Positions 18,805 through 64,000 of a stretch of DNA of 64,000 nucleotides are shown here, in pieces. A program made the translations under genes and the position numbers. Origin of the DNA: a phage; the sequence record PV730299.1; one strand, 5' to 3'. A model generated the notes under the pieces. The model did not search any database and was not told where the DNA came from. It saw only the letters and a list, made by a program, of their open reading frames with translations. Position 1 is the first letter of the stretch; the number at the start of each line of letters is the position of its first letter.

Positions 18805-19382
18805 AATTTCTACACACTATCGTCGACACTTCTTATGACTGCACTGCTCATACCCCAGACCGTTCGCCTGTGTTTGTTCTGAACAAACTAGGTGAAGAGA
18901 TCTGTGAACTGTCTGATGTGTTTCATGGCATAGTATCTTCCGAGCCGTTGAATGGCGAAGTTGCTGATGTCATTATCTCTGCTATTGACCTTCTGTACGT
19001 CATGGATTATGACGACGTCCAAATGCGCGGCTCTATGAACAAGGCCGAAATGATCGACTCTGTCATCAACCACATGGCGACAGTGAACGATATTTCTTCT
19101 AATCTGTTGGAAGAAGACTGGTTCCGTCTGATTGATCGTGATCCTCAAAAGCATCTGAATCTTATTCATCACTATCATGGCCGGATTATCCGATTGTGCA
19201 ACCAGCCTTATCGCAGTCAAGACAGATTGGATCATCTTGTCAATGACCTAATCAAGCATGTTGCGCGCATGGGGTGTGGGGAAGGGGCGATCCGTGGATC
19301 CTCTTTGATGGCCACTCGCATTAAAGTGGAGCACGCTATTGAACACAAGGTTGAAAAGTGGCGTAGCAAATTTGGTCTATAA
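18801..19382 (+). CDS. MazG-like nucleotide pyrophosphohydrolase (putative)
   Basis: Acidic helix motifs LGEEICELSDV and EVADVIISAIDL spaced as in the all-alpha NTP pyrophosphatase EExxE...ExxD signature. Confidence 0.4.
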   Translation: MKFLHTIVDTSYDCTAHTPDRSPVFVLNKLGEEICELSDVFHGIVSSEPLNGEVADVIISAIDLLYVMDYDDVQMRGSMNKAEMIDSVINHMATVNDISSNLLEEDWFRLIDRDPQKHLNLIHHYHGRIIRLCNQPYRSQDRLDHLVNDLIKHVARMGCGEGAIRGSSLMATRIKVEHAIEHKVEKWRSKFGL

Positions 19383-19431
19383 GCCGACCCCATACATAAT
19401 CTTGTGTGTTTACCATTGACGGGATAGGCCG

Positions 19432-21342
19432 ATGTCCAACAAAATTGATATTGAACGCAAGTACAAGAAGCTCACTCACGTTGAGCATATCCTACTCCGC
19501 CCAGAGCGTCATCTGGGCAGTATTCGTTCGTCTGTGGGGACGGTGTGGGTGTATGACCCAACTAAGGATAAAGTCATCTTCCGTGACAACTTTGAGTACT
19601 CCCCCGCGCTGATCAAACAGTTTGATGAAATTATCACCAACTGTGTTGACCACAGCAAGACCCCTGAGGGCAAATCCCTGACGGAAATCACCGTCACAGT
19701 TTCCCCGATGAACGGTCAAATCATCGTTGCTGACAACGGGGGTATCCCTGTGGTCAAGCATGGCGTCACCAACGAGTGGCTTCCTGAAATGTTGTTCGGC
19801 TCTCTATATGCGGGATCGAACTTCAACGACGAAGACGAAGAGTACAACAACCAGAAGTCCGGTGGTCAGAATGGCGAAGGGGCGTCCCTCGTCAACGTGT
19901 TCTCCAAATGGTTCCGCGTCACGACTAATGACGGCAAGAAGTCTTATACTCAGACGTTTGAAGACAACATGAGCAAGAAATCTAACCCAGTCATCAGCAA
20001 CGTGAACAGTCCTGGCACATCCATCGCCTGGATCCCTGACTATGCTCGTCTAGGCGTCAAAGGACTTGACCAGAACAACCTGCTGATGATCTATCGCCGC
20101 GCGTTTGAAGTGGCTGCGTGTAACCCGCGCCTGAAGATTGTTCTCAACGGGAAGCAAATCCGGATTGACCGCTTTGGCCACTTCGTTGATTACTTCCATG
20201 CTGGCTCGGCTGTTGACGAAACCGGGGATTGGTCTGTTGCTGTAGCCCCTTCATCCGGTACGTTCATGCACGCATCATACGTGAACTCTATTGCCACCCA
20301 CATCGGTGGTCCTCACGTTGATTATGTTGCCGACCAGATCGTGGCAGCGATTCGTCCCCAGCTGGTGAAGAAGTTCAAGACCGAACTGAAGCCAGCAATG
20401 ATCAAGAACCACATGTCCTTGTTCATCGCTGCCGACATCAACAACCCGCGCTTTGACAGCCAGACCAAGGAGCGCATGACCACTCCTGTCAGCCAGTTCG
20501 GTACGTCGTACAAGCCCAGTGATAAACTCATCCGCAAGGCGCTTGAGTTCGTTATGGCTGGTCTGAGCAAAGAACTGGCTTCCCTGCGCAATGAGCAGGA
20601 TGATGCTGAGTTTGAAAAGGCCAAGAAGGACATCAGCAAGCGGGATTATCGTGAGATTGAGAAGTATTACCCGGCGACCGCCCGTGGTGACCGCAGCGGA
20701 TGCTCCCTGTTGCTGACAGAGGGTGATAGTGCCTCCAATCCTATCCTGAACGCCCGCGACACCAAGAAGATCGGGTTGTTCCCGCTTCGTGGTAAGTTCA
20801 TCAACTGCCTGAACGCCCCGCGCTCAAAGGTGATGAACAATGAAGAGTTCAAGAACCTGTGTACGATCCATGGCGGCGCAGTGCCAGGCCAGCCCCTTGA
20901 TATCACCCGTTACCCACAGACTGTTGTGGCTACCGATGCGGACGATGACGGCATCCACATCCGTGGGTTGTTGATCACCCTGTATTGCACCTACTGGCCG
21001 GAGTACGTCCGTCAGGGCAGGCTGAAGCTCCTGCGCACCCCTTACATGCGTGTGTGGTGTGGTAAGGTGATGCATGAGTTCATGAACAACGCAGAGTATG
21101 AGGAGTTCCTGAAGACGCCTGATGCCAAGAAGATCACGAAGAAGAAATATCTGAAAGGTCTGGGTGGTAACAGCACTGAAGACTTCAAACGTATTCTAAA
21201 CAACCTGGATGCGTATACTACGACGGTCACGCTGGACGATGGTTATCAACAGTCACTGAAGAATGGCTTCGGTGATGAGGCCGCCGATTACCGCAAAACC
21301 TGGTTTAGCGATGTTTGCCTGTTTGAAACTGAGGATGAATAA
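19432..21342 (+). CDS. 39: DNA topoisomerase II large subunit (GyrB-like ATPase plus Toprim; T4 gp39/gp60 equivalent, unsplit)
   Basis: GHKL ATP-binding region (VADNGGIPV) and Toprim motif LLLTEGDSASNPI; 636 aa. Confidence 0.88.
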   Translation: MSNKIDIERKYKKLTHVEHILLRPERHLGSIRSSVGTVWVYDPTKDKVIFRDNFEYSPALIKQFDEIITNCVDHSKTPEGKSLTEITVTVSPMNGQIIVADNGGIPVVKHGVTNEWLPEMLFGSLYAGSNFNDEDEEYNNQKSGGQNGEGASLVNVFSKWFRVTTNDGKKSYTQTFEDNMSKKSNPVISNVNSPGTSIAWIPDYARLGVKGLDQNNLLMIYRRAFEVAACNPRLKIVLNGKQIRIDRFGHFVDYFHAGSAVDETGDWSVAVAPSSGTFMHASYVNSIATHIGGPHVDYVADQIVAAIRPQLVKKFKTELKPAMIKNHMSLFIAADINNPRFDSQTKERMTTPVSQFGTSYKPSDKLIRKALEFVMAGLSKELASLRNEQDDAEFEKAKKDISKRDYREIEKYYPATARGDRSGCSLLLTEGDSASNPILNARDTKKIGLFPLRGKFINCLNAPRSKVMNNEEFKNLCTIHGGAVPGQPLDITRYPQTVVATDADDDGIHIRGLLITLYCTYWPEYVRQGRLKLLRTPYMRVWCGKVMHEFMNNAEYEEFLKTPDAKKITKKKYLKGLGGNSTEDFKRILNNLDAYTTTVTLDDGYQQSLKNGFGDEAADYRKTWFSDVCLFETEDE

Positions 21343-25565: not shown

Positions 25566-25617
25566 TATCCGGGATAGAGTATCATTGGTTTCACCAACGA
25601 ATCCTCGGGAAACTGTT

Positions 25618-25830
25618 ATGACTACAGAAAGAAGTTACAGAAAGAACTTCAATATCGAAGGGATTGAGTTCTACCACCATTACGCCCAGGACACCCATGG
25701 CACTGTATGCAACACATATATGCTTGACGGTCACCCTGTAAGTTCCGATGAGTTCTATCGTGTTTTGCGCGAGTCTACAGAAGAATCCCTGTCTTACATT
25801 ATCAATGCCAACGGATTGATTAAACCATGA
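25618..25830 (+). CDS. hypothetical protein
   Basis: ATG 25618 downstream of the terminator; the track's longer ORF from 25531 would span the terminator hairpin. Confidence 0.4.
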   Translation: MTTERSYRKNFNIEGIEFYHHYAQDTHGTVCNTYMLDGHPVSSDEFYRVLRESTEESLSYIINANGLIKP

Positions 25831-26516
25831 TCAACGTATCAATAAACGACCGTGATTTCGTTCGCGATGTTATGACAAACAACAAAGACCCTCTTGCGTA
25901 CAACGGGGAGAAGGTTACTCTGTTCTGGTCAGGCGGCGTGGACAGCACGTACATGCTATTCTGGCTGTTGGCTCACGGGTACGAAGTTCACACGATCTAC
26001 TGCGAACTGGAGAACAACTCCTTCAAGGTGAAGCGTGAGAACTGGGCGCGCAAGAAGATCAGGGAGTGGGTGACCACCAATTCACCGAGGTTGAACACTC
26101 ATTGGCATCACAGGGAAACCCCGATCAGCAAAATGAGCATCCAGTCTGGTGGGTTCCGGCCTTGTCTGGCTCAAGCCCCTGTATGGTTAGTGAACACTCA
26201 ATTCGTGGGCGGCCATTTTGATCGAGGACTGCCAAGAACTTATGTGATGGCATACGTCAACGGAGACGACGCTCTCCACTGGATTCCAGCCTTCAACAAG
26301 ATCGTGGAGGGTTATAACATGTTGGCCAAAGACGGACATGAGATCACCGTTCTCTTCCCTCTCGCCAGCATGAAGAAGACATGGTTCTACGAAGCCCTGA
26401 AACCGATCTATGGCCTGATGACCTGGTGTGAATATCCCGTTCTGAAAAAGAACTGTGATTGCCCCGCTTGTGTCCGCCACCGTCATGAACTTTCCGTGTT
26501 TGAGGGGAAACAATGA
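25827..26516 (+). CDS. queC: QueC-like PP-loop ATPase (7-cyano-7-deazaguanine synthase family)
   Basis: PP-loop LFWSGGVDSTYML followed by GYEVH as in QueC; QueC-like PL..K.TW block; C-terminal tetra-Cys cluster TWCEY...CDCPACVRH. Confidence 0.7.
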   Translation: MINVSINDRDFVRDVMTNNKDPLAYNGEKVTLFWSGGVDSTYMLFWLLAHGYEVHTIYCELENNSFKVKRENWARKKIREWVTTNSPRLNTHWHHRETPISKMSIQSGGFRPCLAQAPVWLVNTQFVGGHFDRGLPRTYVMAYVNGDDALHWIPAFNKIVEGYNMLAKDGHEITVLFPLASMKKTWFYEALKPIYGLMTWCEYPVLKKNCDCPACVRHRHELSVFEGKQ

Positions 26517-35008: not shown

Positions 35009-35668
35009 TCAGATTCCGTGGGCTTGTATTAGCTCACGGAGTCTCTGTTTTGAATATGTGGTATCCTCATCCGGAACCACAGCATTCGTCTTCCTGAGCA
35101 AGAACGCCTCTGAGTTCCAGTAGATGTCATCACGCAGAATCGTATCGTATAGATGAATGAACCCAACGATCTTGTTCAGACCGACAAGGAACCAAATCGG
35201 GAACTTCTTGATGATGATGTCTGTCAGCAACGGTGGATGGCCTGTACCCGTCCCCTTGATGTACTCAATGAAGGTGCAGTTGCGCTCCCTTATGGCAGGG
35301 ATCATCTCCCGCTCGAACTCCTCAAGGAAGTTATATGTGAAGTTCTCGTACAGCTTACGGTATTCATCATAATTGGCCTGAGCCTGGCGTGTAAGCAATG
35401 TCGTCACCCAGGTCTTGGGTGATTTGATGAAGTTGGCAATGATGTAGTTCTCTACCACTTCACCCTGTGTTGACTCGAACCGACGGGCAAGGCGAGCAAA
35501 CTGTTTGCACACGGCCTCCTTCGCCAAGAACGTCTCGAACTTGTAATTCATAGGTCCATACAAGCTGTAATCGAAGTCCTTAGTGGTGAAGTGCAGCTTG
35601 ATCGCCATGAAGACACAGTAAACGTTGAACGCCCGCTCGAACTCCATCTTCTGCCACTCTGTTAGCAT
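35009..35668 (-). CDS. hypothetical protein (219 aa)
   Basis: Convergent with the tape-measure gene; a weak resemblance to T4 gp59 helicase loader was considered but is not secure. Confidence 0.5.
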   Translation of the reverse strand: MLTEWQKMEFERAFNVYCVFMAIKLHFTTKDFDYSLYGPMNYKFETFLAKEAVCKQFARLARRFESTQGEVVENYIIANFIKSPKTWVTTLLTRQAQANYDEYRKLYENFTYNFLEEFEREMIPAIRERNCTFIEYIKGTGTGHPPLLTDIIIKKFPIWFLVGLNKIVGFIHLYDTILRDDIYWNSEAFLLRKTNAVVPDEDTTYSKQRLRELIQAHGI

Positions 35669-37844: not shown

Positions 37845-37923
37845 ACTTCAATATATTATCAGGGAACGAATCTCAGCACTCAGCGACGGTATACAGAACA
37901 ACCAGTTGATAAACTTTATCATG

Positions 37924-55510: not shown

Positions 55511-55518
55511 CATAAATA
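55511..55518 (+). promoter_or_regulatory. late promoter-like motif CATAAATA (one mismatch)
   Basis: 35 nt upstream of the gp5-like start at 55553, the same spacing as the motif at 49397. Confidence 0.25.
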
Positions 55519-55552
55519 CCTTCAAATCCTTGTTTGACAACCGGAACTCAAT

Positions 55553-57163
55553 ATGTTAGACAATATGAGATGGTTTTACGGCACCGTTGAAGATGTCAAC
55601 GATCCAGACCAAAACGGGCGCGTCGCCGTCCGCATATATGGCGTACACACCGACGATCCCGTCCTCCTGCCTACAGACAAACTCCCATGGGCGAAGGTAC
55701 TGATGCCTGCTTCTAACGCCTCCTCTGCTGGTTTAGGTTGGTCTCCAACGGGTATCATTCCTGGTACTGAGGTTATGGGGTTCGCCCTTGACGAAGCATA
55801 CCAGAATTTACGCATCACCTGGACTTGGACTGGTTCAAGCCCTACTGATGGCGCCGACACAAACCCGCTGGCTCTCGGGCAGGTCGTTCAATCTGTAGAA
55901 CGTCAGGCGTACAACGCTGTCACTGACGTTCCTGTGAAACAAGAAGACGAACCACAACCAGATCCACAACCACCTGTTGGTGGGTATGATCCAGAGAAGT
56001 GGATGACAATCGCTCGTGGCGAATTGGGTATCAAGGAGTACGCCGGAAAGTTCAATAACAACCCGCGCATTATAGAATATCACAAGACAACCTCCCTTGG
56101 TGCTTCTGAAGATGAAGTGTCGTGGTGTGCGGCGTTCGTGGGTTGGGTTATGATACAGGCTGGATACACGTCTACACGCTCCGCTCTTGCCCGATCTTAC
56201 CTTACATGGGGCACTGCACTGTCAGCACCACAATATGGCGCTATCGTAGTCTTCCGGCGTGGTAACAACCCTACATTTGGACACGTAGCGTTTGTGCAGA
56301 AGTTCGATGCAAACTATGTCTGGTGTATTGGTGGCAACCAATCCGATTCAGTGAAGGTCAGTCGTTTCAGACGTTCTTCGGTCTTGGGATATCGTTGGCC
56401 TGGTCCTGCTAACACAGCCACAGCCGCGCCTGCGCAGCAGAATGGTAAATGGTCAGAACCTATCCCAGATCGTACTCCAAAGGAACAACCGACTCCGGCT
56501 CCTACTGGGCGAGTACAGGATATTGACAACACTGGAGAAACCATGGTTCCGGCTGCGGGTGGCTCTAAATACCCGTACAATAACGTCATGGTGTCCCGAG
56601 CTGGGCATATTATGGAAGTGGATGACACCCCTGGTGGTGAACGTCTTCATTGGATGCATAAGTCTGGGTCTTACAAGCAAATGTTGCCGGATGGTGATGT
56701 GGTCAACAAGTCCGTCAAAGACCACTATGACCTGACGATGTTCAACAAGCGTTATTATGTCGGCGGGGACCACAACCTGACGGTCAAAGGAACTGAAGTT
56801 CAGCGCAAGACAGGTGAGGTCTATCATTTGCATTCCAACAATTACTCCAACGTGGTTGCGGGCACAGCGCTGATGAAATTCAGTGACCTAGCCGAGTTTC
56901 AAGCGCAGAATATTCTGCGCATTATCTGCGAGACTCTGGAGGTCGGTGGGACATTGAAGGTTCCTAAGATTCTAACGACTGAGATCATCGCTGACAAACT
57001 GACTGTCGCTCAGACGATCAATGGTAACATCATATATGCCGAAGGTGCTGGTCGCGCTTCTTCTCTGTCAGGTGCAACCCCTGCATCCCCTACGGGTCCG
57101 GGTGAGATTGACATCAAGGCAGAATTAAAAGACAATGGTGGTAATTTCGGCACCAAAGAGTAA
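55553..57163 (+). CDS. 5: baseplate hub / cell-puncturing protein (gp5-like) with central CHAP peptidase domain
   Basis: N-terminal OB-like segment WFYGTVEDVNDPDQNGRVAVRIYGVHTDD ... LPWA; central Cys/His pair (SWCAAFVGW ... GHVAFV) typical of CHAP amidase/peptidase; C-terminal repeat-like region. Confidence 0.65.
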   Translation: MLDNMRWFYGTVEDVNDPDQNGRVAVRIYGVHTDDPVLLPTDKLPWAKVLMPASNASSAGLGWSPTGIIPGTEVMGFALDEAYQNLRITWTWTGSSPTDGADTNPLALGQVVQSVERQAYNAVTDVPVKQEDEPQPDPQPPVGGYDPEKWMTIARGELGIKEYAGKFNNNPRIIEYHKTTSLGASEDEVSWCAAFVGWVMIQAGYTSTRSALARSYLTWGTALSAPQYGAIVVFRRGNNPTFGHVAFVQKFDANYVWCIGGNQSDSVKVSRFRRSSVLGYRWPGPANTATAAPAQQNGKWSEPIPDRTPKEQPTPAPTGRVQDIDNTGETMVPAAGGSKYPYNNVMVSRAGHIMEVDDTPGGERLHWMHKSGSYKQMLPDGDVVNKSVKDHYDLTMFNKRYYVGGDHNLTVKGTEVQRKTGEVYHLHSNNYSNVVAGTALMKFSDLAEFQAQNILRIICETLEVGGTLKVPKILTTEIIADKLTVAQTINGNIIYAEGAGRASSLSGATPASPTGPGEIDIKAELKDNGGNFGTKE

Positions 57164-59944: not shown

Positions 59945-62227
59945 TTATACAACACAGCTATCGCACTGAGTTTCCTCGGCCTGCTTCAGCTCTTCGTCTT
60001 CCTTGGCGTCCTTGTTTGTGTTGTAATACAGAGTCTTGCCACCCCACATATAGAACGACAGGATATCCTGCATCATCTTGGCGCGAGGGATCTTGCTGTC
60101 AGGGTACTTCTCTGGGTCATACCACGTGTTGGTACTGATGGACTGGTCAACCCAGCGCTGGATGACAGCAGCGGTCTTCAGGTACTCAATACAGTCCAGA
60201 TCCCACTTGAGGTCATACATCGGTCCAAGGGTCTCAACGTCCGGGACGACCTGCTTATAAGTGCCGTCCTTGCTACCCTTGATGCTCACCAAGCCCTTCG
60301 GTGGCTCAATGCCGTTCGTTGCGTTGAGGACCTGTGAGGAGCTTTCGGTAGGGGCTACTGCCAGCAGGGTGGCGTTGCGGATACCATAGGTCTTCAGATT
60401 ATCCTTCAACCCATCCCAATCCAGCCCGTATGCCATCCCTTCTGGCTTCTTGCCATTTGGTAGGATATCAAGTGGAAGCGGCTGAAGGTCGGCGGTGACC
60501 TGCCCATTATTGTGGATGGTTCCGCGTTTACACGCCCCGAACTTCATAGCCAGACGGTTGGACGCCTTGACCAGATAGAAGTGCAGGTGTGCCATCCACG
60601 CATCCAGCATTTCAAGACCAGCTGGTGAGCCATAGCCCGTGAAGTTCTTGGCCAGGAAGTGAGCCACGTTCACGATACCAACACCCAGAGGACGATAGTC
60701 TTCAACAGCCTTGCGAGCCTGAATCGCTGGATAGTCCTGATATTCCAACAGCATGTCCAGCGCAGACACCAACACGAACGCCACGTCTTCCATTTCGGTC
60801 GGGTCTTCGAATGCTGTCAGGTTGAAGGAAGCCAGGGTGCACAGAGCCACGCGCCCGTTTTCATCGTTGTACTGCTCAAACTCACGGGTCGGCAGGGCGA
60901 TTTCTAAACAAAGATTTGAAGAATAAATCGTGTCTAGGTTGAATGGACTGTATTCATTCATGTGATCGACAAACGCGATGTAGATGCGGCCTGTGTCTGA
61001 ACGCTGGTCTAACAGCATCTGGAACACCTCTTCTGCCTGCAACTTTTTAGCACGAACCAAACCAGCATCAGCGGCCTTGATCATGTTCTCATACAGAGTA
61101 CGGAACTTGTCAACGTCAGCGAAGTATGCTTCATACATTTCGCGGTTGTCTTTCGGGTCGAACAGATACAGAGGCTGCTTGGCAACCAGGCGCTCAAACA
61201 TCACGCGGTTGATCTGAATGCCATAGTCGATACGGCGTTCGCGGTTTTCTTCAGTACCACGGTTGTTCTTCAGAACAACGACGTCATCGAACTGGTAATG
61301 CCACAGAGGGATGTACGCTGTTGCTGCACCACCACGAATGCCGCCCTGAGAGCACGATTTGAGTGCCCCAGTGAGATACTTGATGAACGGGATCAGGCCT
61401 GTGTGAACCATCTCTCCGCCGCGAATAGGACTACCAATCCCACGGATTGCCCCGACGTCGAAGCCGATACCCGCACGTTTGGACACATAGTCAACGATGG
61501 TCTTGGCTGTTGCGTTGATAGAGTTCAGGGTGTCATCAGTCTTGATTAACACGCAGGAACTAAACTGACGAGTAGGAGTACGAACACCTGCCATAATCGG
61601 GGTGGGAAGACTGAACTTGCCTGTGCTGGCATATTCATAGAACTTTTTCACCATCTCCAGGCGGCTGTCTTTGTCCCAGTTAGAGAACAACGCCATGGCG
61701 ATGCCCATGTACATGACCTGAGGGGTTTCGTAGAAGATCTTGCTGTCTTTCTTGGAACGGTCGCGCAACAGGTACTTCTCAGTCAGCTGACCCATGGCCG
61801 CCCACGTGAAGTTCTTATCGCGTTTGTGATTGATGACATCGTTCAGCTCGTTGAACTCTTCGGTCGTGTAGAGATCAAGGAACTCACGATCATACACGCG
61901 CTGTTTGATGTTCTTGACGAAGATGTCCAGCAGGTGAGGCGGCTTGTACTGACCGTAGACAGCCTTGCGCAGATCATACGACTTCAGACGAGCAGCCACA
62001 TACTGGTAATTGGGTTTGTCTACAGAGATCAGTGAAGCCGCAGCCTGGATGAGGATATCCTGAATGCGATCTGTTCTCATGTTGTCGGTGAACTGAATCT
62101 TCGATGCAGCGATCACCTCTGACATTGACACACCAGACAGGCCATCACAGGCGCGGTCTACGACTGCGTGTAGTTTCTCAATATCAAATGGGACAGAAGA
62201 TCCGTCACGTTTTATAACGTTAATCAT
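59945..62227 (-). CDS. nrdA: ribonucleotide reductase class Ia alpha subunit
   Basis: N-terminal ATP-cone (VIKRDGSSVPFDIEKL), 760 aa, C-terminal CDSCVV Cys pair; RBS and candidate -10 upstream. Confidence 0.9.
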   Translation of the reverse strand: MINVIKRDGSSVPFDIEKLHAVVDRACDGLSGVSMSEVIAASKIQFTDNMRTDRIQDILIQAAASLISVDKPNYQYVAARLKSYDLRKAVYGQYKPPHLLDIFVKNIKQRVYDREFLDLYTTEEFNELNDVINHKRDKNFTWAAMGQLTEKYLLRDRSKKDSKIFYETPQVMYMGIAMALFSNWDKDSRLEMVKKFYEYASTGKFSLPTPIMAGVRTPTRQFSSCVLIKTDDTLNSINATAKTIVDYVSKRAGIGFDVGAIRGIGSPIRGGEMVHTGLIPFIKYLTGALKSCSQGGIRGGAATAYIPLWHYQFDDVVVLKNNRGTEENRERRIDYGIQINRVMFERLVAKQPLYLFDPKDNREMYEAYFADVDKFRTLYENMIKAADAGLVRAKKLQAEEVFQMLLDQRSDTGRIYIAFVDHMNEYSPFNLDTIYSSNLCLEIALPTREFEQYNDENGRVALCTLASFNLTAFEDPTEMEDVAFVLVSALDMLLEYQDYPAIQARKAVEDYRPLGVGIVNVAHFLAKNFTGYGSPAGLEMLDAWMAHLHFYLVKASNRLAMKFGACKRGTIHNNGQVTADLQPLPLDILPNGKKPEGMAYGLDWDGLKDNLKTYGIRNATLLAVAPTESSSQVLNATNGIEPPKGLVSIKGSKDGTYKQVVPDVETLGPMYDLKWDLDCIEYLKTAAVIQRWVDQSISTNTWYDPEKYPDSKIPRAKMMQDILSFYMWGGKTLYYNTNKDAKEDEELKQAEETQCDSCVV

Positions 62228-62258
62228 GGTGTTCCTCGGGTTTGTTTACGCAGGTTTT

Positions 62259-62264
62259 ATTATA
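62259..62264 (-). promoter_or_regulatory. candidate -10 element (TATAAT) upstream of nrdA
   Basis: TATAAT on the minus strand about 32 nt upstream of the nrdA ATG with an intervening CGAGGAA RBS; -35 is poor. Confidence 0.25.
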
Positions 62265-62310
62265 CGCCACCCTCGTAGATTGAAGGCGGCGGGGAGGGTT
62301 GGCGAGTTAC

Positions 62311-63153
62311 TTAAATGTCGTACAGATCGTTGACTTCCAGCATCAGGCGGGTGAAGTCGCCGCGCCCGTTGCGGTCAGACTTGTCGAACTCGATGATACT
62401 GAACGGCTGAACCCATTCAGGGTACTCATCACCGACGCCAACACCATCGATCTTCAGGGTTCCGGCCTCCAGCTTGGCGTTGAAGTCGCGGAAGGAACTG
62501 ACGTACTTTTCAAGGGCGCTGTCGCGCAGGCGCTTGTTGGACTGTTTGATGTCACCGTTGACAAAGATGTAAGTCGAGTCAGATGCGCGGGTCAGTAGGT
62601 TCTTCAGCTGCTCCATATCACATTCCTGCGCTTCTTCAATGATCAGGAAGGTGTCGTCAAAGGTCATCCCCTTGATGGTCTCCAGATCCTGGATCTCAAT
62701 GATCCGCTTCTCCCACAGATAGTTGAAGAAACCGTCGCTACCTGTGTCAGTCTTCAGCACCTTCTTCAGCGTCTGAATCAGGGGCATCAGATATGGCATC
62801 AGCTTTTCGTATGTGTCGCCAGGGCGGAAGCCTGCAGTCTGGCCTGTTGGCAGCGGAGAGCGCGTGATGACGATCTTACTGACCACTTTATCGATCAGGA
62901 GCTTGGCGGCGGCTGAGGCACCGCAGTACGATTTACCTGTACCGGCAGGACCGATTGCGATAGTGAGGTTTTCTTCAAGAGCAGATTGATATGCGAGGTT
63001 CTGATTCTCTGAGAGGCCATTGAACGGAGCGATTCTGAAGTCACCTTTAGAGAACTTCATCCAGTCATCTTCTTTCTGAATTGTCTCTTTCTTACGTGCT
63101 GACTTGGTCTTGCCCGCTGGCTTCTTACTTACAACTTTGGTGGCAGATTGCAT
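62311..63153 (-). CDS. phoH: PhoH-like ATPase
   Basis: Walker A IAIGPAGTGKSY and overall PhoH-family layout; 280 aa. Confidence 0.85.
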   Translation of the reverse strand: MQSATKVVSKKPAGKTKSARKKETIQKEDDWMKFSKGDFRIAPFNGLSENQNLAYQSALEENLTIAIGPAGTGKSYCGASAAAKLLIDKVVSKIVITRSPLPTGQTAGFRPGDTYEKLMPYLMPLIQTLKKVLKTDTGSDGFFNYLWEKRIIEIQDLETIKGMTFDDTFLIIEEAQECDMEQLKNLLTRASDSTYIFVNGDIKQSNKRLRDSALEKYVSSFRDFNAKLEAGTLKIDGVGVGDEYPEWVQPFSIIEFDKSDRNGRGDFTRLMLEVNDLYDI

Positions 63154-63255
63154 GGGAACCTTCCTATATCTCAGGGTGTCATCACCTCTAATTAAGGTGA
63201 CAACCCCAGCATACCTGAGGATTGGATAAAGAAAAGGCCGTTTCCGGCCTTTGAG

Positions 63256-64000
63256 TTAACTGAAACTCTTGTATGCTGCTGCGAGCTTCTTGTCGTACTG
63301 GTTCTTGGCATACGCCGGACCATTATAGCGCCGTGCAAATTCAGACCAGTTCTTGTCCTTCAGAGCCTGCCAGAGCTTGGCGTCAGCCTTGATGAACTTC
63401 ACGAATGCCATCAAATGAGCACGTTCTCCTGTCAGGAAGTCGTTGAACATCTCCTTGGCGTTGGCATATCCACAGACCTGGCAGTTGAATCCCATGATCT
63501 GGAAGAGACCGTAAGAGGCGCTCTCGTACGCACAATCCTCATCGATGTTGATGGCCGCATGAAGTCGATCCAACTCCGCGTCGCCTCCCGTGTACCCGCC
63601 TGCAGAAGGGTTGACCAACGTCGGGTACATATGTCCCATGGCATTCGCCCGAGCCTGTCCGAACTTCGCCATCAACTTCTTATACATGATGTGGCGCTCA
63701 AATAATGTCTTGATCTTACCTGACTTGGTGAAGCCCGTGCCGCGCGACTCAACCTGATTCACCGCCTTGACAGAGGCAAGGTCAACACCCAGATCGTTAG
63801 CAGCATCAATCAGGTCTGACTCAGTTAGATGATCCTGATGGGCGTCTCCAGCGTTGCGAATAGCATAGGAGGTCTTTGGACCCACGATACCATCAATGAC
63901 AAGCCCCGCACCCGCCTGAACAGTCTTGACGGCGTTCTCTGTTGCCTTGCCAAAGATACCATCAGCGACGAGGGTGAAGCCGATTTTGTTGAGGCTATCC
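63256..64000 (-). CDS. endolysin: N-terminal peptidoglycan-binding domain plus muramidase/lytic-transglycosylase-like catalytic domain; 5' end beyond window
   Basis: The frame stays open to the window edge; upstream of the GTG reported by the track it encodes DGIFGKATENAVKTVQAGAGLVIDGIVGP (PG_binding_1 signature). Catalytic-domain motifs ESRG, YGLFQIMG and YNGPAY. Confidence 0.7.
   Translation of the reverse strand, partial: DSLNKIGFTLVADGIFGKATENAVKTVQAGAGLVIDGIVGPKTSYAIRNAGDAHQDHLTESDLIDAANDLGVDLASVKAVNQVESRGTGFTKSGKIKTLFERHIMYKKLMAKFGQARANAMGHMYPTLVNPSAGGYTGGDAELDRLHAAINIDEDCAYESASYGLFQIMGFNCQVCGYANAKEMFNDFLTGERAHLMAFVKFIKADAKLWQALKDKNWSEFARRYNGPAYAKNQYDKKLAAAYKSFS

Follow-up and report, generated by a model that had tools for sequence, protein, structure and literature searches.

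The window, the whole 64,000-nt stretch of the phage sequence record PV730299.1 that was analysed, ends within a minus-strand reading frame that closes at a TAA codon (63256–63258) and is open over 247 sense codons, as far as the window edge (translation of 63256–63999). This fragment very probably constitutes the 3' 745 nt of a 795-nt Agtrevirus endolysin gene, the product of which would be a soluble enzyme with a PG_binding_1 and a PF11860 domain (Table 1). In the ORF listing the gene appears as a 209-aa frame with a GTG start (63256..63885, minus strand). The original prediction, made from the sequence of the window, had proposed that the frame runs on 5' of this GTG, and no stop codon occurs over the 247 codons up to the window edge. 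The three motifs that it had named as signs of a catalytic domain were all present in the translation, ESRG at 63739–63750, YGLFQIMG at 63490–63513, and YNGPAY at 63310–63327. Downstream on the same strand, the neighbors of the endolysin are a PhoH-like ATPase (62311–63153) and the large subunit of a class Ia ribonucleotide reductase (59945–62227).

Table 1. Positions of the endolysin gene fragment, its domains, selected codons, and the adjoining terminator in the window
Feature	Position	Strand	Details
Endolysin CDS fragment	63256..64000	−	Last base of codon 17, codons 18–264, and the TAA stop
PG_binding_1 (PF01471), N-terminally cut	63862..63993	−	Fragment residues 3–46, full-length residues 20–63
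Interdomain linker	63781..63861	−	Full-length residues 64–90; Pfam domain limits
Muramidase PF11860 (formerly DUF3380) catalytic domain	63262..63780	−	Full-length residues 91–263; Pfam and PDB matches
GTG of the ORF listing, internal Val56 codon within the PG-binding domain	63883..63885	−	
Glu101 codon GAG (in VNQVESRGT), predicted catalytic general acid	63748..63750	−	Sequence; PMC5674055
Glu118 codon GAG (in KTLFERHIM), predicted second catalytic glutamate	63697..63699	−	Sequence; PMC8972805
Ser179 codon TCT (in YESASYGLF)	63514..63516	−	Sequence; PMC13084259 (secondary citation)
Intrinsic terminator	63223..63252	−	8-bp stem AAAGGCCG/CGGCCTTT, GAAA loop, T-rich tail TCTTTATCCA

Using megablast against phage genomes, the window was identified as part of the genome of an Agtrevirus phage of enterobacteria (Ackermannviridae, Aglimvirinae), with a DNA identity of 98.9% over 62000–64000 to Salmonella phage vB_CECAV_050 and Escherichia phages PC3 and PH4, about 98.7% over 40000–64000 to YX22, RPN242, and A221, and about 92–93% to Shigella phage Ag3, MK-13, and Dickeya Limestonevirus phages. 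Over the part present in the window, the endolysin of vB_CECAV_050 (XIF73221.1) is identical at 246 of 247 amino acids and 740 of 745 nucleotides, the sole amino acid difference being Asn147 in the window versus Ser in XIF73221.1, and the order of nrdA, phoH, and the endolysin is the same in both genomes, as is the terminator. Equivalents of this endolysin occur in Escherichia phages PC3, PH4, A221, YX22, and AV101.

Several differences from vB_CECAV_050 (98% identical) were observed elsewhere in the window. Two of its homing-endonuclease genes, one between a MazG-like gene and the topoisomerase II large subunit and the other beside the helicase loader, are absent from the window (~19375–19459 and ~35647–35666; also ~37859–37897), an absence that is the usual mosaicism of mobile endonucleases, and a further ~600-nt stretch of vB_CECAV_050 with a hypothetical gene is absent as well. 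Conversely, the window possesses an extra ~900-nt segment (25610–26513) that just 23 phage records contain, annotated there as ‘QueC-like’ or ‘alpha hydrolase’; an ORF of 229 aa (25827–26516, plus strand) has a weak match to a PP-loop ATPase/QueC N-terminal profile (Pfam E = 1.4e-6). No tRNA genes were found in the window (1–64000), and the five-tRNA cluster of a relative is located elsewhere in its genome.

The position of the missing start was assessed in five relatives with 90–99% nucleotide identity (vB_CECAV_050, YX22, AV101, MK-13, and XF4). In all five, the endolysin CDS is 795 nt in length (264 aa) with an ATG start and an identical set of first 17 residues (MAILKLGNRGTEVKALQ), a GGAGG Shine-Dalgarno sequence lies 8–9 nt 5' of the ATG, and the ATG sits 50 nt past the equivalent of the window edge. 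Alignment to these relatives placed window position 64000 at the third base of the Gln17 codon, and the window therefore misses exactly 50 nt (16 codons and 2 nt). The comparison supports the proposal that the true start lies past position 64000 and that the listed length is too short (209 aa, compared to 264 aa in the relatives). An in-frame stop just beyond the edge, raised in the original prediction as the contrary outcome, occurs in none of the five relatives, the nearest in-frame stop 5' of the ATG being 12–17 codons away in each. By extension from these relatives, the endolysin of this genome would carry the same first 17 residues behind an intact start. It is unlikely that the start is disrupted in this genome, given that the ATG, the Shine-Dalgarno sequence, and MAILKLGNRGTEVKALQ are kept in 5/5 relatives.

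The listed GTG was interpreted as the internal Val56 codon because full-length relatives are 264 aa, the PG_binding_1 domain is complete in a full-length relative, and the frame is open upstream. Translation from this GTG (63885), as the sole product or as an isoform, would yield an enzyme of 209 aa that lacks a functional binding domain; the codon is present, the mechanical ORF call starts there, and some endolysins of Gram-positive phages do have internal starts. Such a product is nonetheless extremely improbable, as a significant PG_binding_1 match spans the GTG in a frame that is open upstream, the sequence before the GTG has no Shine-Dalgarno, the position is occupied by Ala in the homologue LysT84, and all of the relatives annotate the 264-aa form with a strong Shine-Dalgarno sequence. 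The 209-aa call was thus corrected, as an artefact of the ORF listing, to a 264-aa protein with its first 17 residues outside the window.

Both domains were detected above the Pfam gathering cut-offs (22.3 bits for PF11860 and 23 bits for PG_binding_1), with the Muramidase family PF11860 at fragment residues 74–246 (E = 4.6e-59, 200 bits; profile positions 2–174 of 175) and PG_binding_1 at fragment residues 3–46 (E = 1.9e-10, 41.2 bits; profile positions 12–56 of 57), E-values at which the domain signal is not attributable to chance. The PG_binding_1 match begins at profile position 12, as would be predicted for a window edge that cuts the N-terminus. A domain search on the full-length protein, which had been suggested as a check, was possible with a 99.6%-identical relative, in which PG_binding_1 extends over profile positions 1–56 of 57 (54.5 bits). 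Amongst the PHROGs, the fragment falls in the endolysin family phrog_1224 (E = 1.2e-125). The reconstructed 264-aa protein is basic (~28.7 kDa, pI ~8.8). A Kyte-Doolittle scan, together with the non-hydrophobic N-terminus of the relatives (MAILKLGNRGTEVKALQ), revealed no signal peptide, signal-arrest-release (SAR) sequence, or transmembrane segment; the absence of a membrane segment follows from a mean of only 1.06 for the most hydrophobic 19 residues.

Searches of the PDB sequences returned 7RUM (E = 1.6e-152, residues 1–263), 5NM7 (E = 7.8e-63), and, for the catalytic domain only, 7Q4S and 7Q4T (E = 8e-57). These structures belong to LysT84, the endolysin of the E. coli O157:H7 phage FTBEc1 (7RUM; PMC13084259), AP3gp15 of Burkholderia phage AP3 (5NM7; PMC5674055), and Pae87 of Pseudomonas phage JG004 (7Q4S and 7Q4T; PMC8972805). 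Members of the PF11860 family share a lysozyme-like fold, and their active site is unusual (PMC5674055, PMC8972805, PMC13084259), and a linker between the two domains has been described for LysT84 and AP3gp15 (PMC13084259). The general-acid glutamate of PF11860, located within VNQVESRGT in the window protein, aligns with the corresponding glutamate of 7RUM, 5NM7, and 7Q4S. Glu101, which is part of the ESRG motif, Glu118, and Ser179 are all conserved in the window protein. In AP3gp15, Glu101 is essential, with 99.4% of the activity gone in the Glu101Ala variant (PMC5674055); Glu101 of AP3gp15 and LysT84 corresponds to Glu29 of Pae87, at the end of the central helix. A second invariant glutamate is also required, as determined for Glu46 of Pae87 (E46A), the equivalent of Glu118, with LysT84 also cited, and an inverting mechanism after closure of the cleft has been proposed for the PF11860 enzymes (PMC8972805). 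For Ser179, a critical role in LysT84 is reported at second hand (PMC13084259, citing Love et al. 2022).

The original prediction had described a PG_binding_1 domain joined to a catalytic domain of either muramidase or lytic-transglycosylase type. The pairing of PG_binding_1 with a lysozyme-like domain was borne out, but the transglycosylase option was not, as the domain is PF11860 and the SLT-type lytic transglycosylase profile (PF01464) had no Pfam match at E ≤ 0.01 in either the fragment or the full-length relative. There are grounds on which a lytic transglycosylase could be considered, in that the PF11860 structure resembles the lambda lytic transglycosylase, with a glutamate-centered active site in both (PMC5674055), and that the lytic transglycosylase gp144 of phiKZ has the same N-terminal peptidoglycan-binding module. 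However, gp144 (PDB 3BKH) matches residues 1–60 only, which is the binding module, the products of AP3gp15 and of Gp110 of Salmonella phage 10 were determined to result from lysozyme-type cleavage (PMC5674055), and the second catalytic glutamate is kept, which fits hydrolysis (PMC8972805); lytic transglycosylase activity is therefore very unlikely. The missing SLT match, the restriction of the gp144 match to the binding module, and the biochemistry of the family support a predicted PF11860 N-acetylmuramidase rather than an SLT-type lytic transglycosylase, and it is by analogy with that biochemistry that the specificity of the window endolysin would be for muramidase-type cleavage.

The intrinsic terminator starts 4 nt 3' of the endolysin stop codon, with its stem and loop at 63252–63233, has a predicted folding energy of −13.3 kcal/mol (z = −4.2 compared to shuffled sequences), and has a stem that is invariant in the 5 relatives. 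Outside of the window, the relatives share a conserved 60-nt block 5' of the ATG, in which CTTTAAATACC agrees with the T4 late promoter TATAAATA at 7 of 8 positions. Two copies of the T4-type late promoter itself lie in the window against 0.63 expected, which was judged not to be an enrichment, and no second copy of the conserved upstream block CACTTTAAATACC was detected at up to 2 mismatches. A scan of 62200–64000 detected no sigma-70 promoter-like site. Given this lack of enrichment of related motifs in the window, and the location of the conserved block outside of it, no promoter is claimed for the endolysin. The motif TAAATACC, considered in the same late-promoter search, also occurs twice in the window (0.71 expected; likewise judged not enriched), with one copy at 55513–55520, about 33 nt 5' of a gene for a gp5-like baseplate hub. 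The stretch that separates the endolysin terminator from the phoH start codon contains an imperfect inverted repeat (63175–63207; 13-nt arms, 77% complementary) centered on a TAATTA palindrome. This repeat is kept in the relatives, where none of the observed changes is compensatory, and could serve as an operator-like or promoter-region element.

With respect to lysis partners, the genome annotation of the near-identical relative (PQ306799.1) contains no holin at all and, besides the endolysin, a single lysis gene, for an Rz-like spanin (74218–74544), about 20 kb from the endolysin. A holin appears to be lacking from the annotation of this phage group; in T4, the endolysin gene is likewise apart from the holin gene. 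Three small genes 5' of the endolysin in the relatives were considered as holins or spanins and rejected, with no Pfam match and PHROGs families of unknown function. The region just 5' of the endolysin is variable among the relatives, with two small genes (phrog_25746 and phrog_3594) in YX22, MK-13, and XF4 that are replaced in vB_CECAV_050 and AV101 by a 184–185-nt spacer with a GGGGAG/CTCCCC hairpin.

The setting of the gene, surrounded by genes for replication and nucleotide metabolism (nrdA, phoH, and primase) rather than in a lysis cassette, and with no adjacent holin, would also suit a virion-associated lysin that acts during entry rather than an endolysin for release. A role in entry is nevertheless highly improbable: the window enzyme is small and soluble, with two domains, the distant spanin indicates that lysis genes are dispersed in the genome, and the homologues are named endolysins, namely LysT84 (PMC8972805, PMC13084259), El1 (PMC13084259), and AP3gp15 (PMC5674055). 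Further, the entry role is already provided for in the window by the gp5-like baseplate hub (55553–57163, plus strand), which has Gp5_OB and CHAP domains and is a second, virion-borne peptidoglycan hydrolase, presumably for entry.

For the endolysin as a release enzyme, a mode of action may be proposed from the domain architecture and from the characterized members of the family. The helical N-terminal PG_binding_1 domain would dock the enzyme on murein, tied by the short linker to the C-terminal lysozyme-like PF11860 domain, which would hydrolyse the MurNAc-GlcNAc β-1,4 bond with Glu101 as the general acid and Glu118 as the proposed general base, Ser179 also being required. Canonical endolysins without a signal or membrane segment build up in the cytoplasm and gain access to the murein after holin triggering. 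As the window endolysin has no signal or membrane-anchor segment, its release is probably holin-dependent; the predicted timing is accumulation in the cytoplasm, access to the wall only once a holin opens the inner membrane, and completion of lysis by spanins. The Agtrevirus enzyme could, by analogy with the closely related El1, cross the outer membrane of intact Gram-negative cells unaided by means of an amphipathic terminal helix, as a naturally outer-membrane-active lysin; alternatively, because no holin is annotated in the genomes of the Agtrevirus relatives, a non-canonical holin could be envisaged as releasing the enzyme. These ideas, neither of which is particular to this window, are regarded as unlikely.

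The endolysin gene is already known, in that near-identical annotated genes have been deposited and that the protein is 85% identical to an enzyme that has been crystallised and mutagenised. Its identification places the gene in a structurally and biochemically characterized endolysin subfamily, the enzymes of which are of applied interest as anti-Gram-negative lysins, and to which the window copy adds one conservative substitution. Among the characterized enzymes, LysT84 shares 209 of 246 residues with the window fragment (85.0% identity) and has the same length, the same PG_binding_1/Muramidase architecture, and the same Glu101, Glu118, and Ser179; the about 15% of residues that differ are mainly in the linker and surface helices. 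Its source phage, FTBEc1, differs from the Agtrevirus relatives of the window, and El1 of phage Sa157lw is near-identical to LysT84 (PMC13084259). AP3gp15, for which muramidase activity was demonstrated (PMC5674055), has the two-domain layout and catalytic Glu101 of the window enzyme, though its sequence is far less similar and its phage and host are unrelated. Pae87 has the PF11860 catalytic domain in common with the window enzyme, with both glutamates needed by mutagenesis (PMC8972805), but is monomodular and without PG_binding_1. The phiKZ gp144 is, as for the window enzyme, a Gram-negative phage endolysin with an N-terminal PG_binding_1 module, while its catalytic part is a lytic transglycosylase of the SLT type, with no sequence match to the catalytic domain of the window enzyme.
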